NCBI GenBank assembly: GCA_041308845.1
Contig: JBFZAT010000059.1
Coordinates: 3,378-67,377 of the forward strand
Length of the DNA stretch: 64,000 bases
From: Candidatus Omnitrophota bacterium
GTDB taxonomy: Bacteria > Omnitrophota > Gorgyraeia > Gygaellales > Profunditerraquicolaceae
Direction: 5' to 3'
Below, in pieces: positions 2 through 16,354 of the stretch. A model generated the notes under the pieces. The model was not told where the DNA came from. It saw only the letters and a program-made list of their open reading frames with translations, and made no database searches. Every line of letters starts with the position of its first letter. The stretch's first letter is position 1. The position numbers and the translations under genes were made by a program.

Positions 2-2155
2 GCCAACAATAAACATCTTTTCCATACCGATATTCCAGATAGCGTTAAACTCTGGACCGGCACCCGGCTAAATAATAACGGTACCCCGAATGACCCCGAT
101 GATGATTATGAAGAAACGCGTAGCATGGAGGATGTGATCGCTGATTGCGCTGCCTATAAGACTGGAGAATCGCCGATTCCAGCCCAATTTAACGGATTCT
201 TTACCCAGGTCTGGTCACCGACTAATTATTCTGCCGCTGCCACTTATCCTAAGTTACAATCTGGTAAGGTTTATACCGTAGCCAGTTATGTGGCTTTAGC
301 TACCGGAGCTACTTTTACTACTCCGGTTTCTTTCTCCGTAACTATCCCGCAGACCATGAGCGATATGAAGGCATCTTTGGATACCGTGCAAGCTACAGTT
401 GAAAGTACATTGAACATGCCGATTGCGACCATGGAGTCTAACTTACGCCGGATTCTGGCTGGAGATGATGCTGACCCGGATGAAATTGCCGCCCAAGGAG
501 GGATCAAAGGAATTGTAGAGCAGAAACTTGATGATCAGGAAGCGATTATCCGTGCGGCAACTGCGGATATGATGGCAGCTTTTGCTGCTGTTTTAGTGAG
601 CTTTGAGTCTAAGACCCAGGCGGCAGTAGACTTATTGGATGCCAGCTCTAAGACCGCCGAGATTGCCGGCCAAACCCTTAAAGCGACAGCTGAGAAATAT
701 TCTTGGCGTATTGCCCTTTCACCTGATCCAGCTTTACCCGGAGATGAAATAACTTTAACGGCCACCGGATTACCGAATAAAAACCCAGTATTAAGTATTT
801 ATAGTTGGGATAATAAAATCCTTTTTAATAATCAAAAATTAAAAGAGGTTGCTGCTACTCCGGGTGTTTATACTTATAAGTTTGATGTAAACAATAGATT
901 TGCTAGCGGCAAGGCTTATAGTTTTATTATGACTGAGCCGGATAGTGACGCTTTTGAAATCGGATCCGGGATGGTAGAGTCAATGAGCTTAACTACGATT
1001 GCTGGGTTGGCTTCTGCTGCTCCCGGAGCTGAGCGGGCAGCTAAGAAGGCCTTAGATGCGATTAAGGCTGTAGAAGCAGTATTAGTCAGCGGAGAGAATA
1101 TTAATATTGCCCTCACCCTGAAGAACCTGAGAGATTCCGTAGATGCCTTGCCCGGAGAGTTAGCCAAAGAAGGTCCTTCTTCACGTTTAAATAACACTGT
1201 GGATGAAATATCCGACCGATTAAAGGCTCTCGGTGGTAAAGAGGGATTGGACTTAAGCGCTTTGTTCGAAAAAGCCCTGTCTACCTCGCCGACGGTTAGA
1301 GATATGCGCGTCAAGACCGATGAGATCGGGTCAGTGATTGAGATCTTAAAACAAATCTTTGAGGCTAAGTTCGGCGGTAAAGATGCGCCGGTAGTTTCGG
1401 CCACCTTGGCTCCGGGAAGCGTAAAGTTCCGGATCATCGCGGTCAATCCTTCCTCGGATAAAACCCAATTTGTCCAGGTTAAGTATGATTTACCCGAGGA
1501 GGTTAAGCCTCAAGATATTGCAGATTTAGGGGGCCTAGACTTAGAGTATGACTCGGCCCGGTCAATCCATTATGTTTATAAAGCAGATCTTGAATTGGCT
1601 CCGAATGAAGTGCGGGTATTTGAAGTAGATGTAGAAGATATCTGGTTAATCGCCCAGGACAAAATCACGGATCTGAAATTCCGGGTAGACCAAATCCTGT
1701 CTCGCCTTGAACAAACTGCTTACTATCCTAAGGCCAAGGAAATATCAGATACCATCTATCCTAAGCTAAACGAAATTCTGGTTTCTCAGGCGGATGATAC
1801 AGTCAGCCGGGAACGGCATATTGGTGTTTACCGTCAGAATTTATTAGTGCTTGGTCAGGTTAAGGAAGATATCGCCAGGATGGAAAAGATTTTGGTAACT
1901 GCCGGCGGCCCGGCGTCTCCGGAGATGTTGGCTAAGACTAAGATTAAAGCTGATGAGCCGAATAAAACAATGACTTGGATTATTATTTTTGTTATAATCA
2001 TATTTACAGGGCTGCTGGCGGGTGTACTGTTCTTCAGCTGGAATCGTCAGTCGCGTATGGTTAAAGATGAACTCGCAGAAGCTAAAAACTCCGCCTTTCC
2101 TGAGTCCGGATTCGGGCCTGAAGAAAAAAATAAGCCCGCGGAAGGTCAATCTTAA
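2..2155 (+). CDS. Large protein of unknown function (>717 aa, 5'-partial), Ala-rich with coiled-coil-like stretches and a single C-terminal TM helix followed by a basic tail. Its stop overlaps the atpC start (TAATG)
   Basis: The reading frame stays open from position 2 to the listed ORF at 125, with no stop, so the gene runs off the window. The C-terminal hydrophobic helix IIIFVIIIFTGLLAGVLFF resembles the b-subunit anchor FIIFEIIVFTGLIFIL encoded at 2626. I recognise no catalytic motif. Confidence 0.5.
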   Translation, partial: ANNKHLFHTDIPDSVKLWTGTRLNNNGTPNDPDDDYEETRSMEDVIADCAAYKTGESPIPAQFNGFFTQVWSPTNYSAAATYPKLQSGKVYTVASYVALATGATFTTPVSFSVTIPQTMSDMKASLDTVQATVESTLNMPIATMESNLRRILAGDDADPDEIAAQGGIKGIVEQKLDDQEAIIRAATADMMAAFAAVLVSFESKTQAAVDLLDASSKTAEIAGQTLKATAEKYSWRIALSPDPALPGDEITLTATGLPNKNPVLSIYSWDNKILFNNQKLKEVAATPGVYTYKFDVNNRFASGKAYSFIMTEPDSDAFEIGSGMVESMSLTTIAGLASAAPGAERAAKKALDAIKAVEAVLVSGENINIALTLKNLRDSVDALPGELAKEGPSSRLNNTVDEISDRLKALGGKEGLDLSALFEKALSTSPTVRDMRVKTDEIGSVIEILKQIFEAKFGGKDAPVVSATLAPGSVKFRIIAVNPSSDKTQFVQVKYDLPEEVKPQDIADLGGLDLEYDSARSIHYVYKADLELAPNEVRVFEVDVEDIWLIAQDKITDLKFRVDQILSRLEQTAYYPKAKEISDTIYPKLNEILVSQADDTVSRERHIGVYRQNLLVLGQVKEDIARMEKILVTAGGPASPEMLAKTKIKADEPNKTMTWIIIFVIIIFTGLLAGVLFFSWNRQSRMVKDELAEAKNSAFPESGFGPEEKNKPAEGQS

Positions 2156-2388
2156 TGCTGTTAAACGTTTCAATTTTAAACACTAGCCGGGTAGTTTTTG
2201 AGGGGCAAGCCGGCAGTGTAATTGTAACCGGAGAGGAGGGGGTTTTTGAAATTCTCCCTTTTCATAAGCGTATTATGAGCCGTTTGATTACCGGTTCGGT
2301 TATTGTGGATCAGCAGAGTTTTCCGATCCGCCGGGGGATTATTAAAGCTGATCAAAATACAGTAACTATTATTATGGAAGAAAAATGA
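2155..2388 (+). CDS. atpC: F-type ATPase epsilon subunit, N-terminal beta-sandwich domain only (77 aa)
   Basis: VVFEGQAGSVIVTGEEGVFEILPFHKRIMSRLITGSVIV aligns to the epsilon N-domain ([29 protein letters not shown]...). There is no C-terminal helical hairpin. The stop overlaps the atpE start (ATGA). Confidence 0.7.
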   Translation: MLLNVSILNTSRVVFEGQAGSVIVTGEEGVFEILPFHKRIMSRLITGSVIVDQQSFPIRRGIIKADQNTVTIIMEEK

Positions 2389-2603
2389 GTAAAAATATTG
2401 CTTTAGTCATTATTTTTGCTTTATCTATATTAGGGCCCTGCGCAGTTTTTGCCGCAGGCAGCTTTGCTAGTATTAATGCTTTGGGCCGGAACCCTTCGAG
2501 TGCCCCGAAAATTTTTACGGCTATGATTATCGGGTTAGTTTTTGCGCAGTCTTTGGCTATTGTAGCGATGTTAATTGTATTCCAATTATTCGGAGCCTCT
2601 TAA
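2385..2603 (+). CDS. atpE: F-type ATPase c subunit (proteolipid), atypical because it has no acidic residue
   Basis: It is a 72-aa two-helix hairpin with a GRNP polar loop (canonical ARQP). Helix 2, IIGLVFAQSLAIVAM, aligns to G-ALVEALPIIG, with Gln at the ion-binding Glu/Asp position. Confidence 0.7.
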   Translation: MSKNIALVIIFALSILGPCAVFAAGSFASINALGRNPSSAPKIFTAMIIGLVFAQSLAIVAMLIVFQLFGAS

Positions 2604-2625
2604 TACTGGATAAGGAGACAATAAG

Positions 2626-3336
2626 ATGTTGATGGTTTCATTTATAATTTTTGAAATTATCGTTTTTACCGGTTTGATTTTTATCTTACGTAAAATCATG
2701 ACCCAGAATGTAATTTCGGCGACCCAGCACATCGACGAATTAAACCAGGATTATACTAAGAAAGATGAAGATATCCACCGCCGTTGGGAGGAAGTTAAGC
2801 GGCAAGCTGAGCAAATTATCCGCCAGGCTCAAGAAGAAGCTGAAAAGACCAAATCGGAGTTGATGGCTGCCGGTCAAGCCGAAAAAGATCAGATTTTAAA
2901 ACAGGCCCGCGCTAAAAGCGAAGAGATGGTTGCTCAAGCGGACAAATCTTGTCAAGCGATGCTTGCGGAAATAGAGGCGCGGGTTAGCCGGGAGGCGATG
3001 AATAAAGCAGCAGATTTAATTCATGATGTTTTGCCCGATAAATTTAAGCAGAGCGTGCATAATGAATGGGTAGAAGGGTTGATTGCCCATGGGTTTAGCC
3101 ATTTGAATAATATCAGTATTCCGGATAATGTCTTCGAAGTTTTGATTGTTTCCGCATTTCCACTTACTGCTGCCCAGCGCCAGGAGTTGACGCAAAAGCT
3201 TTCCCGGGTTTTAGAGAGAACAATTACCTTAAAAGAAGAAGTAGAACCTAAGCTTGTTGCCGGACTAATTATTAAGATTGCCAGCCTGGTTTTTGATGGA
3301 ACTTTAAAAAATAAAATTATGGAGAAGGCCCGCTAA
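2626..3336 (+). CDS. atpF: ATP synthase b subunit fused to the delta (OSCP) C-terminal domain
   Basis: It has an N-terminal TM helix and a charged coiled coil typical of b. The C-terminus, LTAAQRQELTQKLSRVLERTITLKEEVEPKLVAGLIIKIASLVFDGTLKNKIMEKAR, matches the delta C-terminus (...[34 protein letters not shown]). Confidence 0.65.
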   Translation: MLMVSFIIFEIIVFTGLIFILRKIMTQNVISATQHIDELNQDYTKKDEDIHRRWEEVKRQAEQIIRQAQEEAEKTKSELMAAGQAEKDQILKQARAKSEEMVAQADKSCQAMLAEIEARVSREAMNKAADLIHDVLPDKFKQSVHNEWVEGLIAHGFSHLNNISIPDNVFEVLIVSAFPLTAAQRQELTQKLSRVLERTITLKEEVEPKLVAGLIIKIASLVFDGTLKNKIMEKAR

Positions 3337-4820
3337 TGTCCAGCGAGATAAAATTCCCGGATCCCGGAACAGTTTTTGAGATTCGCGAGGTAGGTTTTGT
3401 GCAGAGCGTGCGTAAATTCATTGTCGTGGCTAAAGGCATGCCCAGCTGTATTAATGGCCAGATTGTTGAGTTTGCTAACGGTATTCCGGGTTTAGTGATG
3501 GGGTTTACCGAGGAAAAAGTCCAGATTTTAGTTTTAGGGGACCCGGTGGGCATTCGTGCCGGAGATGAAGTTTATAACAAGGGGAAATCTCTTAGTCTTC
3601 CGGTAGGGGAGGCTTTCGTCGGCAGGCTTGTAGATGCGCTTTGCCGTCCCCTGGATGGTTTAGGCCCAATCCAAGCCACTACCCAATTACCAGCATTTAT
3701 TGTTGCTCCCGGAGTTATGGATCGGCAGCCGGTAAATCAAACTCTGGAATCTGGTACTCTGATTATCGATGCGATTATTCCTCTGGCCAAAGGCCAGAGG
3801 CAGCTTTTAATCGGCGACCGAATTACCGGTAAAACCTCGGTAGCCTTGGATGCGATTATTAACCAGAAAGGTAAAGATGTAGTTTGTATTTATTGTTGCA
3901 TCGGTAAGCCATACTCAAGTTTAGTAAAAGTGATCAATGTTTTACGCGAAAAAGAAGCTTTGGATTACGTGATTATTGTCTCTGGCGTAGCCAGTGTTTC
4001 TACCGGAGAACAGTATTTAGCCCCCTATACTGCCTGTACTTTAGGGGAATATTTTATGAGCCAGGGTAAGGATGTATTATTGGTGGCGGATGATTTAACC
4101 AAACATGCCTGGGTGTATCGGCAAATATCTCTTTTACTAGAGCGGGCACCCGGGCGAGAAGCCTACCCGGGAGACATTTTTTATTTACACTCTCAAATGA
4201 TGGAGCGGGCCGGACTGCTTAAAAAAGAGTTAGGCGGAGGCTCAATGACCTTTTTACCGATCGTCGAAATTCTGCAGGGAGACCTTACCGGTTATATTCC
4301 GACCAACTTGATTTCGATGACCGACGGGCAGCTGTATTTCTCTACGGGGCTTTTTAATAAAGGGGTTAAGCCGGCGATTGATTTTGGTTTATCGGTCTCC
4401 CGTATTGGTAATAAAGCGCAGTGGCCGGCGATGAAGGCCTCCAGTAAATCTTTGCGGCTGGACTACCTACAGTATAAGGAACTACTGCAGATGACCCAAC
4501 TGCGCACCGCCGGACTTTCTAAAGAGGCCGAAGAGCGCCTGCGCCGGGGGGAGGCGATCAGCCAATTGATTACTCAGGATAAAAACCGTCCGGTTTCTAT
4601 CGAAGAGCAGATTATTTATTTATATTCCTTAAACCAGGGTTGGTTAGATAATTTATCGACGCAGCAGATTCGGCAATTCCGGTTGGGCATTCTGAATTAT
4701 TTCCAACAGAAAAAGCCTGCATTCTGCCAACAGATCCGCCAGAGCAAAATGCTTAGCGAAGATTTACGTTTGATGTTAGAGGAAACATTAACCGCATACT
4801 TACAGCAAGAGGTAAAGTAG
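3336..4820 (+). CDS. atpA: F-type ATPase alpha subunit
   Basis: It carries the alpha P-loop GDRITGKTS with QRQLLIGD, and the overall alpha architecture. Confidence 0.85.
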   Translation: MSSEIKFPDPGTVFEIREVGFVQSVRKFIVVAKGMPSCINGQIVEFANGIPGLVMGFTEEKVQILVLGDPVGIRAGDEVYNKGKSLSLPVGEAFVGRLVDALCRPLDGLGPIQATTQLPAFIVAPGVMDRQPVNQTLESGTLIIDAIIPLAKGQRQLLIGDRITGKTSVALDAIINQKGKDVVCIYCCIGKPYSSLVKVINVLREKEALDYVIIVSGVASVSTGEQYLAPYTACTLGEYFMSQGKDVLLVADDLTKHAWVYRQISLLLERAPGREAYPGDIFYLHSQMMERAGLLKKELGGGSMTFLPIVEILQGDLTGYIPTNLISMTDGQLYFSTGLFNKGVKPAIDFGLSVSRIGNKAQWPAMKASSKSLRLDYLQYKELLQMTQLRTAGLSKEAEERLRRGEAISQLITQDKNRPVSIEEQIIYLYSLNQGWLDNLSTQQIRQFRLGILNYFQQKKPAFCQQIRQSKMLSEDLRLMLEETLTAYLQQEVK

Positions 4821-4824
4821 ATTT

Positions 4825-5688
4825 ATGCAGACGATGGCGGTAATTAAAAAAGATATGGATTTTAACCGCGGCCTTTCTTCATTGATCGAAGTATTAAAAA
4901 ATATCGCTGTGTCACAATATCGTTCGCTAGAGCATAAATTCACTGTTTTTGATAAACTGATGAACGCCATTGAAAGCTGTTTTGAATTTATTGACCTTTC
5001 AGCTTTCCGGCACCAGTTTTTAACGCCGGCTAATCCGGCGCAATTAATTGTGGTGATTACCAGCGATAGCGGACTTTTGGGCGGTTTAAATATGCAGGTA
5101 GTTACCCGGGCCCTGGCCGGATTAGGGAATACTTCTGGTGGTCAATTGGTAGTCATTGGCGAAAGAGGAAAGATGTATGCCCGGGAAAGCCAGGTACCCT
5201 TTGTGGCCTATCCCGGAATTAGCGACGATAACCGCCTTACCCAGGCTTTGCAACTAAGAGATTATTTATTCTCCGGAATCCTGCAGAAGAAGTTCGGTGC
5301 TTTAAAAGTGGTTTATCCTCATCCGGTGTCTTTTACAGTGCAACGGGTGGAGACGGTGAATTTTCTCCCTTTTTCTATGGATTTCTTATCGAACCAACCT
5401 CAGGCCGCCGGTCAGGCCCGAATTATCAAAGAGGTTATTTTCGAATCTAAGATGGCAGATATTTTTGAATATTTGATTTATCTCTGGATGGGGCAGAAGC
5501 TTTATGACATTTTCGGCTTGAGCCGTTTATCAGAATTTGCCGCCCGCTATGTTCATCTCGAGGATAGTTTGCGCCGGCTTAAAGAGATGGATAGTAAACT
5601 AAAATTACAGTATTTTCGCATCCGGCATGAAATCATTGATCAAAGCATGCGTGAACTTTTTAGCGCCCGGTTATTGTATAATTCTTAA
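4825..5688 (+). CDS. atpG: F-type ATPase gamma subunit (divergent)
   Basis: LIVVITSDSGLLGGLNMQV matches gamma YLVVSTDRGLCGGLNINL, and the C-terminal helix aligns to the gamma C-terminus. Confidence 0.65.
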   Translation: MQTMAVIKKDMDFNRGLSSLIEVLKNIAVSQYRSLEHKFTVFDKLMNAIESCFEFIDLSAFRHQFLTPANPAQLIVVITSDSGLLGGLNMQVVTRALAGLGNTSGGQLVVIGERGKMYARESQVPFVAYPGISDDNRLTQALQLRDYLFSGILQKKFGALKVVYPHPVSFTVQRVETVNFLPFSMDFLSNQPQAAGQARIIKEVIFESKMADIFEYLIYLWMGQKLYDIFGLSRLSEFAARYVHLEDSLRRLKEMDSKLKLQYFRIRHEIIDQSMRELFSARLLYNS

Positions 5689-5719
5689 CAGTTAGAGGAG
5701 TTTATCAGGGGAATATTTT

Positions 5720-7120
5720 ATGGTTAAGGAAAAAATAAAAGGAAAAATTACTGCCGTGCAGGGGCCGGTGGTGGATGTAAAATTTGCCAGCTCTGATGAG
5801 GTACCGAATATTTATGCGATGCTCTTGACGCATACCATTGATGGTAGTGAGGTTTTTTTAGAGGTTGCTGAGCACCTGCCGGGGAACCTAGCTCGTTGTA
5901 TCTCAATTAACTCTACTACTAATATCCAACGCTATGCGCAGGCAGTTTTCTACGGCCCGTCTATCCAGATACCGGTGGGAGATGGCCTTTATGGACGTTT
6001 AATTAATGTGGTTGGTCAGGCGATTGACCAGGGCGGGGCGATCCCTTACCAGGAAAAAAATTCGATCAGGAAAACCGATATGGGCAGCCGGATGACAATT
6101 AGTAAGAATAAAGATGAGCGGCGTAGTTTTGAGGTAATGGAAACCGGTATTAAGATTATCGATTTACTGGCTCCTTTAGTTAAAGGCAGTAAAACCGGTA
6201 TTTTAGGGGGCGCCGGATTAGGCAAGAGCGTGTTAACCTTGGAAATTATCCAGCATATCGTTAAACGCTATCAGGGTAGTTGCGTTTTTGTCGGTATCGG
6301 GGAGCGTATTCGTGAAGGAAATGAGCTATATTATGAATTAAAGAATCATGATGTGTTATCTAAAACAATGATGGTTTTTGGCCAGATGAATGAGCCTCCC
6401 GGAGCGCGTTTTGCCGTGGCGATGACCGGCATTACCATGGCCGAGGCGGTGCAGAAGAAGAATCAGGATGTGTTGATGTTTTGCGATAATATCTTTCGTT
6501 TTGTGCAAGCCGGAAGTGAAATTTCTACACTCTTAGGCCGGGTGCCTTCAGAAACCGGTTATCAGCCTACCTTACTTTCGGAGGTGAGTGAGTTTCATGA
6601 GCGTATTCGCACAACTAAAGATTCGGGAGGTTCCATTACTTCTATTGAGGCGGTCTATGTGCCGGCTGATGATTTAACTGATCCAGCGGTTGTGGCGATT
6701 TTTAGTTTTCTAGATTCAGTTCTGGTTTTATCCCGCGAGCGTATCCAATTAGGTTTATATCCGGCGATTGATCCGCTTTTATCCAGTTCTTCTAATTTGG
6801 ATATCGATATCGTCGGTAAACGTCATTTCGATGTTGCCCAGGATGTCATCAGAATGTTTCAACGCTATGAAGAGTTACGCCGGATTGTTTTAGTTGTGGG
6901 TATCGATGAACTTTCTTCAAGCGACCGGATTATTTATGAGCGGGCCAGAAAAATGCAGAATTTCCTCACTCAACCGTTTTTTGTCGGAGAAGCTTATACC
7001 GGTAAAAAGGGGGTTTATGTAACCATTGAACAAACTTTGGATGGATGTGAAAGAATTATTTCTGGTAGAATGGATAATCAGCCGGAGGAAGGTTTTTATT
7101 TAATCGGAGCTTTATCATAA
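5720..7120 (+). CDS. atpD: F-type ATPase beta subunit
   Basis: It has the P-loop GGAGLGKSV, the catalytic GERIREG, MNEPPGAR, FRFVQAGSEISTLLGRVPSETGYQPTL and YVPADDLTDPA motifs. The DELSEED loop reads DELSSSD. Confidence 0.85.
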   Translation: MVKEKIKGKITAVQGPVVDVKFASSDEVPNIYAMLLTHTIDGSEVFLEVAEHLPGNLARCISINSTTNIQRYAQAVFYGPSIQIPVGDGLYGRLINVVGQAIDQGGAIPYQEKNSIRKTDMGSRMTISKNKDERRSFEVMETGIKIIDLLAPLVKGSKTGILGGAGLGKSVLTLEIIQHIVKRYQGSCVFVGIGERIREGNELYYELKNHDVLSKTMMVFGQMNEPPGARFAVAMTGITMAEAVQKKNQDVLMFCDNIFRFVQAGSEISTLLGRVPSETGYQPTLLSEVSEFHERIRTTKDSGGSITSIEAVYVPADDLTDPAVVAIFSFLDSVLVLSRERIQLGLYPAIDPLLSSSSNLDIDIVGKRHFDVAQDVIRMFQRYEELRRIVLVVGIDELSSSDRIIYERARKMQNFLTQPFFVGEAYTGKKGVYVTIEQTLDGCERIISGRMDNQPEEGFYLIGALS

Positions 7121-7147
7121 TAAAATATATTAAAAAGCGAGTAAAAG

Positions 7148-9298
7148 ATGTCTAAAAAAATCGATTTGCAGTTAGCCGAAGTATTGGTGGAAAAGAAATT
7201 GATTAACCGGGAGGATATCGGAAAATTTTTACAGGAAGCCGCAACGCTCAGCCATGATTTAAAACAGGTTTTAATCAAGCACAATTTGTTTTCTGAAAAA
7301 GAACTGCTGGATATCTTGGCCGAGAAGCTAAAATTAAGCTGCGTTAACCTTAAGGAGCTGCTGATTGATAAATCGATTATTACTAAAGTTCCTTTGAAGA
7401 TCGCTTCTTATTATAAATTTATTCCTTTGGCGCTGCGCGGCCGGACACTGACGATTGCCGTGGCTTATCCTTTAGACATTCAGACCTTGGATGAAATTAG
7501 GACTCAGCTGGGTCTGGACCTGGAGATGTCTTTGGCCTGCTCGGCGGATGTTTTAGATGATTTAAAGAAATATTACGGTTTGGCCGCCGATACCCTGGAA
7601 AAAATAAGCTCCCAGAGTCCTGCGGGGAACTTTAGCGAACAGACTAAAGTGCAAGAAGGAGTGGAAGATATTGAAAAACAGGCCACGGATGCTTCAGTGA
7701 TTAAATTAGTTAACCAGATAATTCTAGAGGGTTGGCGGAAACGGGCTACCGATATCCATATTGAGCCTTATCGCCAAGGCTTATCTTTACGCTACCGGAT
7801 TGACGGTTTACTTTACGATGCTAATGTGCCAGGGGAAATAAAAAATTTTCTTAATGCCATTGTTTCCCGGATTAAAATCATGTCGAACCTGAATATCGTT
7901 GAACGCCGCCTGCCCCAGGACGGCCGGGCGATTGTTAGGGTCCAAGATCAGGTCTTAGACCTGCGTATTTCCACTATTCCTACTCCTTTTGGAGAAAGCT
8001 TGGTGATCAGAATTCTGCCTACCCAGATGCTCTTTAGCCTGGAGAAACTGGGTTTAGCCAAGAGTGAATTGCAGATCTTTGAAAAATTAGTTCAGAAGCC
8101 GCACGGTATAATATTCGTTACCGGCCCCACTGGCAGCGGTAAGACGACCACCCTTTATTCTTGCCTGACCAGGATTAACACCAAAGACCGTAAAATTATT
8201 ACCATCGAAGACCCGATCGAATATGAGATGAGCGGGATTACGCAGATCCAGGTAATGCCGGAGATCGGGCTGGATTTTGCCCGCGGCCTGCGCAGCATTT
8301 TAAGGCATGATCCGGATGTAATTATGGTGGGAGAAGTAAGGGATTTTGAAACTGCTGAAACAGCCATCCGGGTGGCTTTAACCGGGCATTTAGTATTTTC
8401 TTCTTTACATACTAACGATGCCGCCAGCGGAATCGCCCGCCTGCAGGATATCGGAGTAGAACCTTACTTGATTGCTTCTAGCGTGGAGGCTTTTATTGCT
8501 CAACGTTTGATCCGGGTGATTTGTCCGGAATGCCGTTTTGAAGATAAAAATGCGCCTTTAGAATTAAGGGAGTTGATTGCTAAAGATTTGGGAATTAAAT
8601 TAGAAGAGGTAAAAATATTCCGGGGTAAAGGTTGTGCCCATTGTAACGCTACCGGGTTTTTTGGCCGTACGGCTATCTACGAAATCCTAATCGTCGATGA
8701 TCTAACTAAGGAGATGATTTTAAAGAAAGCTTCTTCGGATCAAATTAAAAGGCTGGCTTTATCCAAAGGCATGCGGACTTTGCGCCAGGACGGTTGGAAA
8801 AAAACGATCAGCGGGATTACTACTTTTGAAGAAGTAATCCGGGTAACTTCGGCTCAACAGGAGGATCTTTTGGTCAAAGAGACTCCGGCTCAAGAGCGCG
8901 GATATACTAAATCGGAGCTGCCGCCGCAGCCGGAAGGATCAAATAAACGTATTTATCAACGTTTAGATAATAAAGTTAAAGTGCGCTATAAAGTTTTTGA
9001 AACCGAAAAAGAATTGATTAAGCGTAAAGAAATCACTGAGGAAATCAGCGCGACAAAAAATATTTCTGCCGGAGGTTTACTTTTTATTGCTCAGGAGCAG
9101 TTAACTATAGGTGCAATATTAGAGCTTAAGATTCAATTACCTAGCAGCCAGGAGTTGGTTGAATGCTTAGCCAGGGTGACTAGGGTGGAGGAAATGCTTG
9201 AGCCGGGAGAATATGATATTGCAGTTTGTTTCCTGGATTTAACCAGCGCTGATAGGATTAGATTAGATAAATTCGTGAAGCTAGAAAGCGGAGGTTAA
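7148..9298 (+). CDS. gspE: Type II secretion / type IV pilus assembly ATPase (GspE/PilB family) with an N-terminal T2SSE_N/MshEN-like domain and a C-terminal PilZ domain
   Basis: Walker A is GPTGSGKTTT. The tetracysteine motif is CPEC...CAHC. The C-terminal ~140 aa carry RIYQR (RxxxR) and NISAGGLLF ((D/N)xSxGG), which are PilZ c-di-GMP-binding signatures. Confidence 0.8.
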   Translation: MSKKIDLQLAEVLVEKKLINREDIGKFLQEAATLSHDLKQVLIKHNLFSEKELLDILAEKLKLSCVNLKELLIDKSIITKVPLKIASYYKFIPLALRGRTLTIAVAYPLDIQTLDEIRTQLGLDLEMSLACSADVLDDLKKYYGLAADTLEKISSQSPAGNFSEQTKVQEGVEDIEKQATDASVIKLVNQIILEGWRKRATDIHIEPYRQGLSLRYRIDGLLYDANVPGEIKNFLNAIVSRIKIMSNLNIVERRLPQDGRAIVRVQDQVLDLRISTIPTPFGESLVIRILPTQMLFSLEKLGLAKSELQIFEKLVQKPHGIIFVTGPTGSGKTTTLYSCLTRINTKDRKIITIEDPIEYEMSGITQIQVMPEIGLDFARGLRSILRHDPDVIMVGEVRDFETAETAIRVALTGHLVFSSLHTNDAASGIARLQDIGVEPYLIASSVEAFIAQRLIRVICPECRFEDKNAPLELRELIAKDLGIKLEEVKIFRGKGCAHCNATGFFGRTAIYEILIVDDLTKEMILKKASSDQIKRLALSKGMRTLRQDGWKKTISGITTFEEVIRVTSAQQEDLLVKETPAQERGYTKSELPPQPEGSNKRIYQRLDNKVKVRYKVFETEKELIKRKEITEEISATKNISAGGLLFIAQEQLTIGAILELKIQLPSSQELVECLARVTRVEEMLEPGEYDIAVCFLDLTSADRIRLDKFVKLESGG

Positions 9299-9303
9299 AG
9301 TTA

Positions 9304-10521
9304 ATGGTAAAGTATAATTATCGGGCCAAGAAAGGGCTCCAGGAGATAGTCAGCGGTACGATAGAAGCTGCTTCGGAAAAAGAGGCCATTGAAAAAATCA
9401 GTGCTTTAGGGTATCTGCCCGTGCACCTGGAAGAGAATAAGGGTCCTGCTCAGGCCTCGATTTTAACCACGCCTAAATCTTACGGCAGGATAGGTTCCGG
9501 TCAGATTACTATTTTTAGCCGGCAGTTGGCCAGCCTTTTAAAATCCGGGGTTCCGATATTATCCGCGATAAATATTATTAAAGAACAATCGGAAAACATG
9601 AATTTAAAAGCGGTGCTGGTTGATATCTATAATGAGATTAAGAATGGAGGTACTTTTTCGTCTTCCCTGGAGGCTCACCCCAAATATTTTTCTGTTTTGT
9701 ACGTAGCGATGGTGCGCACCGGGGAGAATAGCGGAGCTTTAGCTGGTTCGCTTTTAAGGATTGCGGATTACCGGGCTAAACAAGAAGAATTGCTTTCGCG
9801 TTTGCGCATGGCGATGGCTTATCCGCTACTTATGGCTTTAGTCGGAGTGGCTACGGTGGTATTTATGCTTACTTTTGTGATGCCTAGGTTAATGGGGATA
9901 TTTTCTAGTCTGGGCCAGAATCTCCCGCTGCCGACTAAGATTTTATTGGCTATCAGCCAAGGTCTGCGCCAGTGGTGGCCGGGAATAATCTTAAGTCTGG
10001 GGGTAGTGGTTTTTTTGATCAAACAGCAGTTAAAAACTAAAATTGGTAAAATTTCCTGGAGCATTCTAAAATTGCATATACCGATTTTTGGGAAATTCGT
10101 GTTAAAAGCGGATCTGGCTTGTTTTAGCCGGACTTTAGAGCTGTTAATTAAAAGCGGCCTGCCGATACTTAGGGCGCTGCAGATATCCGTTCAGGTATTA
10201 AGCAATGAAGTGATCAAGGAAAAGTTAATTAAAAGCCATCGTGATCTGGAACAGGGGGGATCTTTTGGCCAGAGCATGAAAGATTCTAAATTGCTGCCTT
10301 TGTTTATGGTGAACTTAATCAGCGTCGGCGAAGAATCCGGTAACCTGGCTGCGGCCTTAGGAGAAGTAGCGGATTGCTATGAACGTGATACCGATGAAAC
10401 CGTCAGGATAATGAGCAGCTTACTTGAACCACTAATGATCTTGGTTATGGGTTTAATCGTGGGTTTTATTGTGGTAGCCATGTTATTGCCGATATTTGAA
10501 ATTAACATGATGGCTAAATAA
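9304..10521 (+). CDS. gspF: T2SS/T4P inner-membrane platform protein (GspF/PilC family)
   Basis: It has the duplicated T2SSF-like architecture, 405 aa, three TM segments, and sits immediately downstream of the ATPase. Confidence 0.75.
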   Translation: MVKYNYRAKKGLQEIVSGTIEAASEKEAIEKISALGYLPVHLEENKGPAQASILTTPKSYGRIGSGQITIFSRQLASLLKSGVPILSAINIIKEQSENMNLKAVLVDIYNEIKNGGTFSSSLEAHPKYFSVLYVAMVRTGENSGALAGSLLRIADYRAKQEELLSRLRMAMAYPLLMALVGVATVVFMLTFVMPRLMGIFSSLGQNLPLPTKILLAISQGLRQWWPGIILSLGVVVFLIKQQLKTKIGKISWSILKLHIPIFGKFVLKADLACFSRTLELLIKSGLPILRALQISVQVLSNEVIKEKLIKSHRDLEQGGSFGQSMKDSKLLPLFMVNLISVGEESGNLAAALGEVADCYERDTDETVRIMSSLLEPLMILVMGLIVGFIVVAMLLPIFEINMMAK

Positions 10522-10526
10522 ATCCT

Positions 10527-11387
10527 ATGACGAATATAAGAATGAAGCTATTTTTAGTTATTTTATTGGGTCTATGTTCTTTGGCCGCCGGTTACCCCGG
10601 GAACTGGTCAGAGAAAAAAAGCGAGCATTTTATCGTCTATTTCACCCAGGATGAAAAGTTCGCCCAGGATGTATTGCATAGAGCAGAGCAGGATTACCGC
10701 CGTATCGCTCACGATTTAGGGTATGCGCGGTATTCGGAATTTTGGACCTGGGATAAAAGAGTGAAAATTTACATCTATCCAGAGCGGAATGCTTTCTTAA
10801 AAGCGACCAACCAACCTTCTTGGTCAGAAGGGATGGCTGATTATACCAATAAGCATATCGTCAGCTATGCCTGGGGCAAAGGGTTTGTAGAGTCGCTTCT
10901 ACCGCATGAGATTGCGCATTTAGTTTTCCGCGATTTTGTAGGCTTTAAGGGAGAGATTCCTCTTTGGCTGGATGAAGGTGTAGCGCAGTGGGCCGAAGAA
11001 GCTAAACGTAAGGAGATTAAGAGCCTGATACAGCGATATTTTCAGCAGGATAATTTACTTTTAGTGAGCGATATCATGAAACTGAATATTGAGAATCTTA
11101 AAGGTAAACAGGGGTTATTGATCCGGGCCACCCGGACCAAAGACGATAAAGACGGAGTACTTTTCTTAAGCGCTAACAATTTAATCGAAATTTATTATCT
11201 TCAATCTGTTTCGCTGGTGGGTTATTTAATTGAGAAATTCGGCTCTACCGCTTTTTCCGGGTTTTGCCGTGAACTACGCGATGGGCGCAGCGTAGAGGAA
11301 GCTTTGAGGGTTGCCTATCCTTTACGCATCCGTGATATTAAAGAGTTCGAGGATGGCTGGAGGGAATATTTAAAGACAGGTAATTGA
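10527..11387 (+). CDS. Secreted putative zinc metallopeptidase, MA clan (Peptidase_MA_2-like)
   Basis: It has a signal peptide, HEIAH (HExxH) and a downstream WLDEGVAQW (third-ligand Glu in the WxxEGxAxY/W context). It is embedded between gspF and gspG. Confidence 0.45.
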   Translation: MTNIRMKLFLVILLGLCSLAAGYPGNWSEKKSEHFIVYFTQDEKFAQDVLHRAEQDYRRIAHDLGYARYSEFWTWDKRVKIYIYPERNAFLKATNQPSWSEGMADYTNKHIVSYAWGKGFVESLLPHEIAHLVFRDFVGFKGEIPLWLDEGVAQWAEEAKRKEIKSLIQRYFQQDNLLLVSDIMKLNIENLKGKQGLLIRATRTKDDKDGVLFLSANNLIEIYYLQSVSLVGYLIEKFGSTAFSGFCRELRDGRSVEEALRVAYPLRIRDIKEFEDGWREYLKTGN

Positions 11388-11402
11388 GTAATTGAAGAAA
11401 GG

Positions 11403-11834
11403 ATGATCATGAATAAAGCGCAAAAAGGTAGAGTTCAATCAAATGGTTTTACGCTGATCGAATTAATGTTGGTAGTGGTAATTATCGGGGCATTGGTAGC
11501 GATGGTCATGCCTAGGCTTACCGGTAGAGGAGAACAGGCCCGGGTGGCAGCAGCTAGCGCGGATATTAATGCTAATATTGCTACTGCTTTAAAACTTTAC
11601 GAATTGGATAATGGCAATTTTCCCAGTTCCTCTGAAGGGTTAAAGGCTTTATTAGTTAAACCTTCATCAGTGAAGAATTGGAATGGGCCTTATTTAGAAA
11701 GAAAACCGGTTGATCCTTGGGGCCGGGAATATGAATATAAATCTCCGGGTGAGCATCGCAAAGCCGATTATGATTTATACTCTTTAGGTAAGGATGGGGT
11801 AGAGAGTGTTGATGATGTTACAAACTGGGAATAA
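11403..11834 (+). CDS. gspG: T2SS major pseudopilin GspG
   Basis: It has the prepilin leader SNG|FTLIELMLVVVIIG and the GspG C-terminal signature NWNGPY...DPWGREYEYKSPG...DYDLYSLGKDG. Confidence 0.85.
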   Translation: MIMNKAQKGRVQSNGFTLIELMLVVVIIGALVAMVMPRLTGRGEQARVAAASADINANIATALKLYELDNGNFPSSSEGLKALLVKPSSVKNWNGPYLERKPVDPWGREYEYKSPGEHRKADYDLYSLGKDGVESVDDVTNWE

Positions 11835-12228
11835 GGCAAGCATAAAGAGTCCTGTTAGAGGCTTTAGTCTGCTGGAGGTGATGATTGCCGCAGCGGTGCT
11901 GGCTTTGGGGGCGACATTAATTTATCAGTCTTTTTTTACCGCGGTTGATTCTTTTAATTATTATTCCGCTCTTTTAAAAATAACCCCTTGGATGGATGAG
12001 CAGATTTGGCAAGCCCAGAATGAGCTTAGCCGTCCGGGTTCAGGAGCTAATCTGCCCTCCGGCGGTCGGCTGGAAATTAATAATAAGGTTGTGGATTGGA
12101 GTTTAACTTACCATGCTCTAGATCAATCTATGAACCTTTACCAGATTGACTTGGCTCTTTTCTGGCCGCAAGGGGCCAGGCAAGTCAAATTATCGAGATC
12201 CGCTTATGCGATTCATACGCAAGAATAA
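11806..12228 (+). CDS. Minor pseudopilin (GspH/GspI-like)
   Basis: It has the prepilin-type N-terminus RG|FSLLEVMIAAAVLALG and is of small size. Confidence 0.55.
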   Translation: MLMMLQTGNKASIKSPVRGFSLLEVMIAAAVLALGATLIYQSFFTAVDSFNYYSALLKITPWMDEQIWQAQNELSRPGSGANLPSGGRLEINNKVVDWSLTYHALDQSMNLYQIDLALFWPQGARQVKLSRSAYAIHTQE

Positions 12229-12790
12229 TTCAGGTTTTAGTCTGGTTGAGCTTCTGGTAGTCATGGTTATGCTCAGCGTAATTTCTTTAGCTATCTATTC
12301 AACCTTTAATAATGGTTTTAAAATATGGCAAAAGGTTAATCAGCCTTTAGAGCAGCAAGATTTGGGTATTTTCTTTGATAAGTTGGCTCAAGATTTAAGC
12401 AACTGCTTGCATTCTGCCAATATCCCTTTTTCCGGTAGCCTGAATACCCTGACTATACCGACCTTAGTTTTTAGCCCGCGCTTAAAGATAAAAAGTTTAG
12501 GTTCGGTAGATTATTTTTACGATCCGCAAGCCGGATTTGTGTATCGTCAAACTAAGGATTTCAGCCAGCTTTATAACCGGCAACAAGAGAGTCCGGTGCT
12601 CCTATTAAAGGAGATTAGATTTTTTAGATTTGAATATTATTACTTTGACGCAGAGAAACAAACTTATTTGTGGCAAGAAGAATGGTTAAGCACGGGTTTA
12701 CCTCTGGCGGTTAGGGTAGTGCTAGGTTTTAATGATTCCGATGAGAATAACCAATTTATCCGGACAATCAGTGTTCCGATCGGCGCTTAA
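12206..12790 (+). CDS. Minor pseudopilin (GspJ-like)
   Basis: It has the prepilin-type N-terminus NSG|FSLVELLVVMVMLS, reached from the internal ATG at 12206. The listed ORF start at 12146 is probably too far upstream. Confidence 0.55.
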   Translation: MRFIRKNNSGFSLVELLVVMVMLSVISLAIYSTFNNGFKIWQKVNQPLEQQDLGIFFDKLAQDLSNCLHSANIPFSGSLNTLTIPTLVFSPRLKIKSLGSVDYFYDPQAGFVYRQTKDFSQLYNRQQESPVLLLKEIRFFRFEYYYFDAEKQTYLWQEEWLSTGLPLAVRVVLGFNDSDENNQFIRTISVPIGA

Positions 12791-13784
12791 GTCCAAAGGA
12801 AGTATTTTAATTCTGGCTTTATGGTCGCTTTGTTTATTATCGGCGTTTGCCGTTATTTTAAATTATCAAATTCGCCAAGCGCTGGTTTTAGCCAGCCGGA
12901 TTGATCAGAAAGATAAAATGCGCTGGATTGCCGCTGCCGGGGTAGCTAAGGTTATGGCGGAATTAAAGCATAGCCCAGCGCAGACCTACGATTATTTAGC
13001 TGACCCCTGGAGTAATAATCCTGCCGCTTTCCGGGATATTCCGGTAGGAGACGGCGAATTTACCCTAGAATATTTTTATCCAGATACCTACTCTGCTGTT
13101 GCCCAAGCAGGTTACGGTTGTGTGGATGAAGAACGTAAGCTTAATATTAATCAGGTTGAGCCGGAAGTTTTAACCCGTTTTTTCCGGGTAGTTTTATCGG
13201 TTGATGAATCGCTGGCTCAAGAATTAGCCGCTTGCATTGTGGATTGGAGGGATGCAGATAGCCAGCTTTCTATTCCTACCGGGAGTGCGGAATATTTTTA
13301 TTATAGCAGCCTGCCTTTTTCTTATCCGGCTAAAAATGCCGATTTTGAGGTTCTAGAGGAGTTGTTGCTGGTTAAAGGTTTTAGCGAGAATGTTTTTGAA
13401 AAAATAAAAGACTATGTTACTATTTATGGATCCGGCCGGGTGAATATTAATACCACTACGCAGGTTATCTTATTTGCCCTGGGGTTAGATGAAGATTTGG
13501 CGGCCAAGATTATTTTATACCGCATGGGTCCGGACGGATTGGGCCAGACACCGGATGATAACGTTTTTGTTTCTCAATCGGAGATTGTGCCCAAGTTAAG
13601 TCAATTTTATGCTTTCAGTTCTGCACAGATTGATCAGTTGAATCGGATAGTTTCTCAGTATATCGCGGTTGGCTCCAATAACTTTTTGATTAAGTCTACG
13701 GCTAAATTGTCCGGAAAGAATACTTTAACTGTATTTAGTGTAGTTAATCGAGATGGCAAAGTTCTTTACTGGCGGGAAAATTGA
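12732..13784 (+). CDS. gspK: T2SS minor pseudopilin GspK-like
   Basis: It has a hydrophobic N-terminal segment, 350 aa, a GRVNINTTT (xNxNTA-like) motif and a helix-hairpin-helix-like region typical of GspK. Confidence 0.55.
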   Translation: MIPMRITNLSGQSVFRSALKSKGSILILALWSLCLLSAFAVILNYQIRQALVLASRIDQKDKMRWIAAAGVAKVMAELKHSPAQTYDYLADPWSNNPAAFRDIPVGDGEFTLEYFYPDTYSAVAQAGYGCVDEERKLNINQVEPEVLTRFFRVVLSVDESLAQELAACIVDWRDADSQLSIPTGSAEYFYYSSLPFSYPAKNADFEVLEELLLVKGFSENVFEKIKDYVTIYGSGRVNINTTTQVILFALGLDEDLAAKIILYRMGPDGLGQTPDDNVFVSQSEIVPKLSQFYAFSSAQIDQLNRIVSQYIAVGSNNFLIKSTAKLSGKNTLTVFSVVNRDGKVLYWREN

Positions 13785-13787
13785 TAA

Positions 13788-15269
13788 ATGTTTAAAATTA
13801 AAATGAAAAAGTTTAAATTTTTTTCCAGGCTTGCCCACCAGGAAATGGTCGGGGTTAATCTCAGCGGGAATAATTTAAAAATCTCTCATCTAAAGATTTC
13901 TCCGAACAAGAAAGAGGTAGTTAATCTTTTGAATTTAGATATTACCGCGCTTAACGATATTGAGATCGCTAAAAAAATCCAGGTAGCTATCGGGGCTCTC
14001 CGGGGTAAAGCGGTGGAGATTATTGATTTGCTTCCTACGCATTTGGTAATTACCAAAAATATCGAAGTTCCTTCTATCGAAAAAAAAGAGATTAAGGAGA
14101 TTCTCAACCTGCAGGCCGGCCGGCATACTCCTTATTCCCGAGAAGAAATAATCGTAGATTATGTTGAAATCGGTACCTATAAAAATAGCTATACTAAGGT
14201 ACTTTTAGTGATTGTGGCTCGCAGCGTTGTTAAGCGGCATTATGAAATATTGGAACGGGCAGGTTTTAGGCTTAAGCAGGCTCTTCTGGCTTCGGAAGGA
14301 ATGGCTTTGGCTGTTTTTAAAACTTTAAGGCTGGAGAATGAAAGCGCGCCGGTCAACATTCTGCATGTTGATGAAAACTTTACGGATTTTAGCGTCGTTT
14401 TTAAAAACCGGGTTATTTTTATCCGTTCTATCCCGATCGGGGCCTCTCAGCTCAAACAAGAAAAAGAAGTTTACCAGCTGAAGTTTATCGACGAGCTTAA
14501 AAGATCGTTGGAGGCTTATTTAGGCGGAGATATTGAAATCAGCCCGAATATGCTTATTTTAACCGGAGCCGAGGACGGCCTGAAAGAAATTGAAACTTTG
14601 CTTAACAGCACAATGCATTTACCGATTAAAACCTTGTCGTATTCCGGTATGTTTAATATTTCAGAGCTAGCCCGCGGAGCAATGTTTAAATCCCGGCAAA
14701 TATCTTTTTTTGATGTAATTGCTCCGCTTTTAAACTGTCCGGAGCTCAAGATTGATCTGGTGCCGGAGGAAGCCCGGGTGCGCCGCTCACTTGAGGAAAG
14801 AGGCAAAGATTTGATTAAAACCGGTATTTTTATCTTAAGTATTTTTATTATTGTTTTCTTTATTCTAGCCAGTAAAATCTATTTCCATGGTGTTCAGCTA
14901 AACAGGTTAGAACGTAAATATTCTACGGTTAACCGGGAAGCCAAAGAGCTAGAGAAAGACCTGGTTAAAATAGGGTTGGTGAAGAATTATCTGACTAATC
15001 GGGGCTATTCTTTAGAAATTTTGACTCAGTTACACGGTTTAGTTTCTGCTGATATTGAGTTGAGCGAAATTCGCTATGACCTAGATAAATTCTCCATTAA
15101 AGGTTCGGCGGATGCCATGAGTTCGGTTTTTTCATTTGTCGACCGGCTGGAAAAGTCCGAATATTTCAAGGAGGTTAAAACCCGCTATACCACTAAGCGC
15201 AAAGACGGTTTGAGGGATTTAACGGATTTCGAAATTATTACTTTGACCGAAAGGCCTAAGGATCGATGA
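13788..15269 (+). CDS. GspL-like protein: a PilM-type actin-like cytoplasmic domain, a TM helix, and a PilN-like periplasmic domain
   Basis: The N-terminal ~350 aa resemble PilM. A single TM helix follows (IFILSIFIIVFFILA), then a ~120-aa periplasmic segment. Confidence 0.6.
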   Translation: MFKIKMKKFKFFSRLAHQEMVGVNLSGNNLKISHLKISPNKKEVVNLLNLDITALNDIEIAKKIQVAIGALRGKAVEIIDLLPTHLVITKNIEVPSIEKKEIKEILNLQAGRHTPYSREEIIVDYVEIGTYKNSYTKVLLVIVARSVVKRHYEILERAGFRLKQALLASEGMALAVFKTLRLENESAPVNILHVDENFTDFSVVFKNRVIFIRSIPIGASQLKQEKEVYQLKFIDELKRSLEAYLGGDIEISPNMLILTGAEDGLKEIETLLNSTMHLPIKTLSYSGMFNISELARGAMFKSRQISFFDVIAPLLNCPELKIDLVPEEARVRRSLEERGKDLIKTGIFILSIFIIVFFILASKIYFHGVQLNRLERKYSTVNREAKELEKDLVKIGLVKNYLTNRGYSLEILTQLHGLVSADIELSEIRYDLDKFSIKGSADAMSSVFSFVDRLEKSEYFKEVKTRYTTKRKDGLRDLTDFEIITLTERPKDR

Positions 15270-15880: not shown

Positions 15881-16354
15881 ATGAAAAGGATATTTTTATT
15901 GGCGTTGAGTTTAGTCCTCTTGTGGAGTTTTACCGCGCAGGCCTTAGAAACTACATTGATCGACGTGCGTAACGAAATACTAAAGAATGCCCAGGGGATA
16001 AAACCTTACTTTGAGAAATCTCGGGACCCGCTTTTATTAAATAGTTTGTGGGGTTCTTCGATTATGGCGGTTTCACAATTAGACGCTTATTTTTCGATGT
16101 TGGGGATCATAAACGGCATTAAAAATGAAGATTTACAAACAGCCCAGATTGGTTATTTGGTCAGTTGGCTGAACCAAATTAAAGATACAACGGAATTAAA
16201 TATTAAAAGTTTAGAGGCGATTAAATCGACTAGTGATGCCCGTAGCCGGGCGATGGCTTTAAAGTTAAGGGACATTTTTAATAATTTAAAAACCCGGGTA
16301 GTTAAAGAGCTGGGGACGGTTACGCAGCTGCAGCAGTCGCAGGCTAAGAACTAA
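15881..16354 (+). CDS. Small secreted/periplasmic helical protein of unknown function, last gene of the T2SS-like cluster
   Basis: It has a signal peptide (LALSLVLLWSFTAQA), no recognisable motifs, and is followed by a terminator. Confidence 0.4.
   Translation: MKRIFLLALSLVLLWSFTAQALETTLIDVRNEILKNAQGIKPYFEKSRDPLLLNSLWGSSIMAVSQLDAYFSMLGIINGIKNEDLQTAQIGYLVSWLNQIKDTTELNIKSLEAIKSTSDARSRAMALKLRDIFNNLKTRVVKELGTVTQLQQSQAKN

Follow-up and report, generated by a model that had tools for sequence, protein, structure and literature searches.

The stretch of DNA analyzed here comprises 64,000 nt of the genome of a Candidatus Omnitrophota bacterium (assembly GCA_041308845.1, contig JBFZAT010000059.1, positions 3,378 to 67,377 of the forward strand). 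We refer to it as the window, and coordinates are counted from its first position. Close to its 5′ end the genes of an F-type ATPase run directly into a cluster resembling a type II secretion system (T2SS), with only 27 nt between the gene for the β subunit and gspE. The catalytic head of this ATPase appears intact, its membrane sector is degenerate, and the two sets of genes stay together in the related genomes. We think it reasonably probable that the module is a non-chemiosmotic, ATP-hydrolyzing and membrane-anchored motor that would work with the GspE/GspF machine and with a large protein encoded immediately upstream.

The original prediction, made from the sequence of the window, took the two gene sets to be an undescribed composite system. 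This was not borne out, as linkage of non-respiratory F-type ATPase clusters to type IV-filament clusters in Omnitrophota was published in 2023 (Seymour et al., Nat Microbiol, PMC10066038). The locus in the window is the same system and is already known. What this analysis appears to add to that account is the degenerate Fo, the loss of the ion-binding carboxylate and the coupling of translation between the large protein and ε.

Gene identities were taken from Pfam and NCBIfam profile searches. The order of the cluster, all on the + strand, is the large anchored protein with immunoglobulin (Ig)-like domains; the ATPase subunits ε, c, b/δ, α, γ and β; GspE-PilZ and GspF; a Peptidase_MA_2 protein; the pseudopilins GspG, H, J and K; GspL and GspM; and a secreted protein of 157 aa.

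Linkage of the ATPase and gsp genes in related genomes

The β subunit of the window has hundreds of close homologs, and the named ones belong to Candidatus Omnitrophota or Omnitrophica. Taking one genome per species gave 80 loci in which β is 60–94% identical to that of the window. All derive from Omnitrophota metagenome-assembled genomes (MAGs) or bins with the same cluster, and the window α is 52–91% identical to the α subunits of these linked loci. To score synteny, the proteins of the window were used as tblastn queries against the MAG contigs, and the denominators given are the loci with enough sequence.

GspE is encoded within 3 kb downstream of β, and on the same strand, in 63/63 loci. 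The genes for ε, c, b/δ, α and γ lie ahead of β in 45/45, and the C-terminus of the large protein lies ahead of ε in 36/36. Further downstream the arrangement is almost as constant, with GspF after GspE in 52/53 loci; the peptidase and GspG are encoded in 42/48 and 45/48, respectively. Three loci with β 75–81% identical to that of the window have the same order, with a protein of 2,800–4,300 aa in front. The search was also made in reverse, beginning from GspE-PilZ, and the ATPase was found directly upstream in 7/7 orthologs examined. These comprise four orthologs from eight metagenome-contig loci (4/4 linked) plus three long contigs.

The genes beyond the block vary. They include purU in the window, secE-nusG-rplK in locus L096, an H+-pyrophosphatase in L097 and sensor kinases in L001. 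The invariant core consists of the large protein, the ATPase, GspE and GspF, together with a small MshEN protein where this is present. Whether the ATPase and gsp genes remain linked across related genomes had been put forward in the original prediction as a check on its idea of coupling; the linkage holds in every one of the 63 loci, down to 60% identity in β, and in all seven of the reverse cases. Because the block is kept across the loci while its outer flanks differ, the predicted functional coupling of the ATPase and Gsp gene sets is well supported.

Individual loci have features of their own. In the divergent genome represented by L086, two tandem α genes (2874–5804 of that locus), 53% and 52% identical to the window α, stand before γ and β. 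MAG STD1_64 has a full cluster on each of two contigs (L040 and L041) with coverages of 14.6x and 49x, and these copies are probably two populations that were binned together, not a duplication. Genes for a response regulator and a PAS/CHASE histidine kinase are inserted at varying points (15265–21404 in L001 and L002, 15381–17631 in L005, 14223–16187 in L095 and 9626–9991 in L096), and this suggests a lineage-specific sensory control. In L001 and L002 there are no pseudopilin genes in the sequenced stretch past GspF, where the sensor-kinase genes are found.

The β-gspE junction and the extent of the transcription unit

The β open reading frame (ORF) runs from 5720 to 7120 and ends with a TAA stop codon at 7118–7120. 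The ATG of gspE is at 7148, leaving a junction of 27 nt (7121..7147). These positions are exactly those of the original prediction; the string that it had quoted for the gap corresponds to the TAA codon plus the 27 nt. Read directly, the gap following the stop codon is A/T-rich, and neither a hairpin nor a T-tract is seen in it, in agreement with the original prediction. The RNA of the region 7080–7180 has a folding energy of −11.5 kcal/mol compared with a mean of −14.1 for shuffled sequences (z = +1.0), and 173 of 200 shuffled sequences reach an equal or lower energy. As the region folds less stably than its shuffles, there is no hairpin at the junction.

A scan for terminators likewise gave no site at the junction. 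The sole strong terminator-like site on the + strand within 1–18000 is an intrinsic terminator at 16401–16434, in which a stem of 11 bp encloses a loop of 5 nt and is followed by a run of seven T residues (stem-loop 16401–16427; −13.7 kcal/mol). This agrees with its earlier designation as the first clear terminator. No promoter-like site was found on the + strand in 6900–7147, in a scan that is uninformative as it returned 37 hits in total against 35.1 expected from shuffled sequence.

The genes between 2155 and 16354 are tightly packed. No intergenic distance exceeds 48 nt, and there are several overlaps between genes, among them that of ε and c, which share ATGA at 2385–2388. At the start of the ATPase genes the frame 5′ of ε is open from window base 2 (the ORF is listed as 125–2155), and its end shares one base with the start codon of ε in the sequence TAATG at 2153–2157. 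The cluster is thus predicted to be one co-directional operon of more than 16 kb that starts upstream, inside the gene for the large protein. The original prediction had proposed a single unit of about 14 kb from ε to gspM. The linkage and the short gaps favor a single unit; the limits need to be changed at both ends, to the large-protein gene at the 5′ end and to the 157-aa ORF at 15881–16354, in place of gspM, as the last gene.

The catalytic head of the ATPase

The α (494 aa; 3336..4820) and β (466 aa; 5720..7120) subunits are both recognized by Pfam and exceed their NCBIfam cutoffs. The α subunit scores 572.7 bits with NF009884 (cutoff 554) and 538.6 bits with TIGR00962 (cutoff 484), and β scores 560 bits with TIGR01039 atpD (cutoff 463). 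The Walker A sequence of β (GGAGLGKS), its GERIRE motif and the Walker B Asp are kept in 80/80 orthologs. In α the Walker A motif is intact, and the arginine finger within SVSRIG is kept in 70/70 orthologs. At the level of sequence, α3β3 is predicted to be catalytically competent.

The α subunit is nonetheless about 10–17 residues short at its N-terminus, where alignments to structures in the PDB begin at residue 14 of the query versus residues 23–31 of the chains. The γ subunit (287 aa; 4825..5688; PF00231, E = 3.3e-31) is strongly diverged, scoring 80 bits with TIGR01146, for which the cutoff is 194.

A degenerate Fo and reduced regulatory parts

The remaining subunits depart further from their families, and the scores of γ, ε, c and b/δ are all far below the equivalog cutoffs. 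The ε subunit (77 aa; 2155..2388; PF02823, E = 1.1e-11 over residues 3–75) comprises the N-terminal β-sandwich only, and its C-terminal helical regulatory domain is absent. It scores 44 bits with TIGR01216 (cutoff 67), covering profile positions 2–79 of 130, and its orthologs are similarly short at 74–78 aa. Subunits b and δ are fused in a protein of 236 aa (2626..3336; PF00213, E = 3.7e-14; PF00430, weak), which has a transmembrane (TM) helix at residues 1–26, a b-like coiled coil and the C-terminal domain only of δ (OSCP profile positions 100–166 of 172). The fusion falls below the cutoff of every NCBIfam model for b, δ or b/δ.

There is no gene for subunit a in the cluster of the window, nor in those of 45/45 related loci, and there is no room for one. 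Subunit a (PF00119) was also not found in about 50 of the 68 longer ORFs of the window that were scanned, a search that did not extend to the genome outside the window.

The c subunit (72 aa; 2385..2603; PF00137, E = 7.2e-06) has no acidic residue anywhere in its sequence. In alignments to solved c subunits Gln55 lies opposite the ion-binding carboxylate (for example VFAQSLAI of the window against FTEALAI). In 56 distinct c orthologs this position is occupied by Gln in 25, Glu in 19, Ala in four, Val, Leu and Thr in two each, and Phe and Ser in one each. There is no Asp or Glu within positions 5–68 in 36 of 55 orthologs. When the position is placed on a neighbor-joining tree of β, at least 17 changes are required, of which at least 10 are switches between acidic and non-acidic residues, and Glu is inferred at the root. 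By contrast, the cytoplasmic loop that faces F1, with the sequence I-x-ALGRNPS-x-APKIFTAM, is nearly invariant across the orthologs. With a near-invariant loop and a variable carboxylate site, c is therefore likely to be under selection, though not for ion binding.

One other residue of c is fully conserved. Gln67, within the motif FQLF near the periplasmic end of helix 2, is invariant in 55/55 orthologs, while the mid-membrane carboxylate site is among the most variable positions.

The description of this ATPase as atypical in the original prediction is therefore upheld, given a cluster with no gene for subunit a, a c subunit lacking the carboxylate, a truncated ε and the b/δ fusion. Its further suggestion, that the ATPase might be secreted or assembled by the Gsp machine, finds no support, since the subunits have no signal peptides and display the normal features of cytoplasmic F1 and inner-membrane c and b subunits. 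Because an enzyme that depends on the carboxylate could not have lost it ten times, we conclude from these sequences that in the majority of the family, this organism included, the module would neither synthesize ATP chemiosmotically nor pump ions.

The large protein upstream of ε

The window contains the C-terminal 717 codons of the large-protein gene (2..2155), which extends beyond the 5′ end. Orthologs of the protein are 2,612–4,308 aa in length, and the orthologous ORFs fill the entire upstream flank; homologs are confined to Omnitrophota. The stop/start overlap with ε is such that the two genes are predicted to be translationally coupled.

An AlphaFold2 model of the 717 residues has a predicted local distance difference test score of 67 and a predicted template modeling score of 0.35. 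It contains long helices, two Ig-like β-sandwiches and one C-terminal TM helix (approximately residues 655–698 of the 717), followed by a tail of about 40 aa. Comparison of the model with the PDB using Foldseek gave generic Ig-like matches only, none with E < 1e-3. In Pfam searches with the C-terminal pieces (about 2,100 aa) of three orthologous large proteins, the only match was to the Ig-like domain Kre9_KNH. We considered whether the large protein might replace subunit a, and rejected this; a single C-terminal TM helix is visible, and there is no resemblance to subunit a.

The GspE-PilZ machine and the T2SS-like genes

The gene that follows β encodes an assembly ATPase of the GspE/PilB family (7148..9298; PF00437, E = 1.6e-128) with an N-terminal MshEN domain (PF05157) and a C-terminal PilZ domain (PF07238). 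It scores 586 bits with TIGR02533 (cutoff 630) and 556 bits with the PilB model (cutoff 676). Both PilZ motifs are present and conserved, RxxxR as RIYQR and (D/N)xSxxG as NISAGG. The best 120 homologs of this GspE all have the MshEN-T2SSE-PilZ architecture. Next is the inner-membrane platform protein of GspF/PilC type (9304..10521; PF00482, E = 2.7e-59), which scores 372 bits with TIGR02120 (cutoff 424), with the PilC models close behind.

Most of the related loci have an additional gene between β and gspE, encoding an MshEN-only protein of 152–163 aa (11416–11883 in L001, and in most of L014–L086). This protein passes the model NF053729 for the cyclic di-GMP (c-di-GMP) binding motif, with 55.2 bits against a cutoff of 38; the N-terminal motif of the window GspE is below that cutoff. 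The MshEN-only gene is lost in the clade of the window, and it is for this reason that β directly abuts gspE there.

Downstream of gspF lies the gene for a secreted or periplasmic zinc metallopeptidase of the Peptidase_MA_2 family (10527..11387; PF13485, E = 3.6e-17), with a HEIAH motif and a signal-like hydrophobic N-terminus. The major pseudopilin is of GspG type (11403..11834; PF08334, E = 8.5e-32) and scores 142.5 bits with TIGR01710, above the cutoff of 88.85. Three minor pseudopilins, among which N_methyl motifs are found and for which the start codons are approximate, are H/I-like (11806–12228), GspJ-like (12146–12790, with a weak match to T2SSJ) and GspK-like (12732–13784; T2SSK_1st, E = 9e-14; NF037980, 101.9 bits with a cutoff of 130). 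The GspL-like protein (13788–15269; PF11104, PF05137) comprises a PilM actin-like domain, a TM helix and a PilN domain, and its score of 76 bits with the NCBIfam pilM model is below the cutoff, as is that of GspM (15266–15832; PF10741) with the NCBIfam GspM model at 34 bits. The last gene of the unit (15881..16354) encodes a protein of 157 aa with a signal peptide that is predicted to be helical. It has no match in Pfam or NCBIfam; its orthologs occupy the same position in many loci.

The secretin GspD, GspC and the prepilin peptidase GspO were found neither in the cluster nor in the other scanned ORFs of the window, and they are not listed in the annotated related loci; they might be encoded elsewhere in the genome.

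Relation to known systems

According to Seymour et al. (PMC10066038), non-respiratory F-type ATPase clusters adjoin type IV-filament clusters in every class of Omnitrophota, and both lie within 10 kb of one another in 57 of 66 contigs. The loci are described there as ‘symbiotic’ F-type ATPase/type-4a pilus (T4aP) loci and read as serving attachment to, or motility on, host cells. The locus in the window matches these in coming from an Omnitrophota genome and in having an F-type ATPase within 10 kb (here 27 nt) of the filament cluster. It differs in two respects from the published description. The filament genes, which were called T4aP, are in the window more like T2SS genes, with a GspG equivalog and Gsp-like K, L and M. 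The α subunit, which was placed with the Mycoplasma type 2/3 ATPases, is in the window of canonical type by the NCBIfam cutoffs, as is β. Neither ‘subunit a’ nor ‘subunit c’ nor ‘atpB’ occurs in the searched text and supplements of PMC10066038, where giant ORFs are handled separately with no tie to this cluster.

Giant genes beside T2SS-like loci and pilZ genes were described by West-Roberts et al. (2023), who do not mention the ATPase. In the window the ATPase genes lie between the giant gene and the T2SS-like and pilZ genes, and the large protein adjoins the ATPase in L001–L005, L007, L009 and L095–L097. A survey of 176 complete Omnitrophota genomes (bioRxiv 10.64898/2026.06.07.730766) found both α and β in 125 and γ in only 30 using strict thresholds, and the small number of γ calls fits the diverged γ found here. 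According to the same study most complete Omnitrophota genomes are without a complete F1Fo by KEGG criteria, and a V/A-type ATPase is present in most Gorgyraeia.

Among other bacteria the closest parallels are in Mycoplasma, where the surface MIB-MIP system depends genetically on the type 3 F1-like X0 ATPase (Berlureau et al. 2026, PMC12994834). The Mycoplasma type 2 and 3 ATPases, which include the G1-ATPase of M. mobile gliding, consist of F1-derived α, β, γ and ε subunits, make no ATP, and share an operon with a surface system that needs them, an arrangement similar to that predicted for the window. Also in common with the window, the type 3 clusters have an α subunit lacking its N-terminal helix and encode a large membrane protein whose TM helices are at the C-terminus (PMC12994834). 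The Mycoplasma clusters differ in having neither c nor b/δ, and in encoding a 12-TM protein together with other X0 components; no protein of the 12-TM type is present in the cluster of the window. Moreover the partner in Mycoplasma is a system for antibody cleavage or the gliding legs, and in the window it is a pseudopilus. Membership of the type 2/3 group was rejected on gene content and because the β and α subunits of the window are below the corresponding cutoffs (425 versus 850, 412 versus 570, 409 versus 600 and 285 versus 520 bits).

Compared with a canonical F1Fo, the window has homologs of α, β, γ, ε, c and b/δ, of which α and β pass the equivalog models and keep their catalytic residues. 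It lacks subunit a in the cluster, the carboxylate of c and the C-terminal domain of ε, its δ is reduced and fused to b, and its gene order of ε-c-b/δ-α-γ-β is different. The N-ATPases (atpDCQRBEFAG) are another group of F-type ATPases with an atypical operon, a long b and no separate δ, and TIGR03321 of this group gives the third-best E-value for the b/δ fusion (48.7 bits). N-ATPases have a subunit a, AtpQ and AtpR, and an ion-binding c subunit. All of these are absent from the window cluster, and the gene order differs. Scores of 494 bits with TIGR03305 (cutoff 752), 508 with TIGR03324 (750), 36 with TIGR03323 (282) and 49 with TIGR03321 (225) led us to reject membership of this group also.

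A c subunit hairpin with Gln in place of the ion-binding residue is found in Acetobacterium woodii, where it contributes to a mixed ring whose remaining hairpins continue to bind Na+. In c1 of this organism (PDB 4bem) the Gln replaces the ion-binding Glu, and the sequence AVAQTTGI aligns with VFAQSLAI of the window. The difference is that in the window the subunit lacking the carboxylate is encoded by the sole c gene of the cluster. Finally, the filament genes resemble both a T2SS and a mannose-sensitive hemagglutinin (MSH)-type pilus with MshE. Homologs of GspE, F, G, J, K, L and M are present in the usual order, with MshEN on the ATPase. In contrast to those systems the ATPase of the window has an extra C-terminal PilZ domain, and a Peptidase_MA_2 gene lies between F and G.

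A possible mechanism and its alternatives

In the mechanism that we favor, the F-type module would no longer make ATP or pump ions, and would hydrolyze ATP. The α3β3 head would turn γ-ε and a ‘proton-blind’ c-ring, and the mechanical output would be passed within the inner membrane to the TM helix and tail of the large protein, to the GspE/GspF platform, or to both. Through PilZ, and in most relatives through the extra MshEN protein as well, c-di-GMP probably gates the pseudopilus motor. The likely role would be in attachment to, or attack on, other cells, as was proposed for these loci in PMC10066038. The nearest precedent for such a mechanism is the Mycoplasma F1-like X0 ATPase (PMC12994834). 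That the module might be a true rotary motor without ion coupling, the torque of which mechanically drives the anchored protein of 3,000–4,000 aa, the GspF platform, or both, is a tentative suggestion that we regard as rather doubtful.

A number of observations weigh against a motor of this kind. As α and β pass the canonical AtpA and AtpD cutoffs of NCBIfam, the F1 head looks ordinary by sequence alone; the score against solved bacterial F1 subunits is 473 bits, compared with 347 bits against the Mycoplasma G1-ATPase. Glu is retained in 19 of 55 c orthologs, the most divergent lineages among them, and these could translocate ions if subunit a were encoded elsewhere; the search for atpB covered the clusters and the scanned ORFs of the window. 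The synteny depends upon tblastn of MAG contigs, and the β tree is a rough neighbor-joining one. That the ATPase would be in physical contact with the large protein and the Gsp proteins is a prediction from gene order.

Some of these observations are what would be expected of an ordinary F1Fo synthase or ion pump with subunit a encoded elsewhere, its adjacency to gsp being a lineage-specific operon arrangement or a matter of shared regulation. Split atp operons exist in other bacteria. The canonical scores of α and β, the retention of all the catalytic residues and the 19 c orthologs with Glu are consistent with such an enzyme. It is difficult to reconcile with a c subunit that in the window has no acidic residue, with the same condition over positions 5–68 in 36 of 55 orthologs, and with at least 10 switches between acid and non-acid. 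Nor would it account readily for the lack of subunit a in 45 loci, for the truncation of ε, δ and the N-terminus of α, or for the synteny with GspE in 63/63 loci despite the varying outer flanks. Separate ‘respiratory’ F-type or V/A-type ATPases are moreover reported in the phylum (bioRxiv 10.64898/2026.06.07.730766 and PMC10066038). We consider an ordinary synthase or pump very unlikely.

The close association with the large protein could be given another meaning. The module might be an ATPase dedicated to the export or unfolding of that protein, similar to FliI/FliJ of type III systems, with the Gsp machine handling the protein in the periplasm and the MA-type peptidase perhaps releasing its C-terminal anchor. 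The gene for the large protein is translationally coupled to ε and adjacent to it in 36/36 loci, FliI and SctN are homologous to α and β (as seen in the NCBIfam matches), and a periplasmic peptidase is present in 42 of 48 loci. Yet the module retains c and a membrane-anchored b/δ, which type III ATPases do not have, no export gate is encoded, and the 717 residues seen of the large protein carry an anchor at the C-terminus in place of a recognizable secretion signal, so that an export function seems quite unlikely. It might be instead that the large protein, the ATPase and the pseudopilus are co-expressed for the same stage of life without being in contact, the ATPase for example adjusting the local ATP/ADP ratio or the membrane potential during attack. 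Membership of an operon does indeed mean co-expression and not contact, and the insertions of sensor kinases and response regulators in several genomes point to stage-specific regulation. But co-regulation by itself rarely preserves a gene order through divergence of β down to 60% identity and through changes in all of the outer flanks, and a role in membrane potential is made unlikely by the degenerate Fo. This explanation too appears unlikely, and a non-chemiosmotic motor acting with the Gsp machine and the large protein remains the reading that we prefer.

Other features of the window

The rest of the window consists of chromosomal housekeeping genes, including purU, ispH, lysS, clpC, radA, cysS, metG, alr, lptFG and tmRNA, from which it follows that the cluster does not belong to a mobile island. 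Immediately 3′ of the cluster, at 17411–23182, are genes for a squalene/phytoene synthase, a flavin amine-oxidase-type oxidoreductase, IspH and a polyprenyl synthetase, which may make up an isoprenoid or squalene pathway. The region 31795–35800 contains an ORF of 171 aa, an McsB-like ATP:guanido phosphotransferase (arginine kinase; 32312–33364) and a ClpC-type ATPase (33380–35800). This McsA/McsB/ClpC arrangement is best known from Firmicutes, and is found here in a diderm with LptF/LptG at 53887–56078. A single ORF of 445 aa at 58736–60073 combines a Maf-like nucleotide pyrophosphatase with a Peptidase_M48 domain, which is an unusual fusion. There is one tRNA gene at 61267–61347 on the − strand, and the tmRNA is at 63042–63448 on the + strand (170 bits).

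Implications

The Omnitrophota are widespread and ultra-small bacteria that are probably predatory or host-dependent, and there are no pure cultures. The cluster is among their most conserved lineage-specific features, and its function is predicted from the genes. For annotation, calls of ‘F0F1 ATP synthase’ in Omnitrophota should not be taken as evidence for chemiosmotic ATP synthesis. If the torque of the module does drive the anchored protein or the platform, F-type ATPases would gain a third function in addition to making ATP and pumping ions, and this would be the first instance of a rotary ATPase and a type IV-filament motor forming one machine. If an ATPase with a degenerate Fo powers the surface protein or the pseudopilus, the family would provide a natural experiment on a c-ring that no longer carries ions. 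Taken with the Mycoplasma cases, it would then mean that on more than one occasion a rotary ATP synthase was taken over as the mechanical motor of a system at the cell surface.

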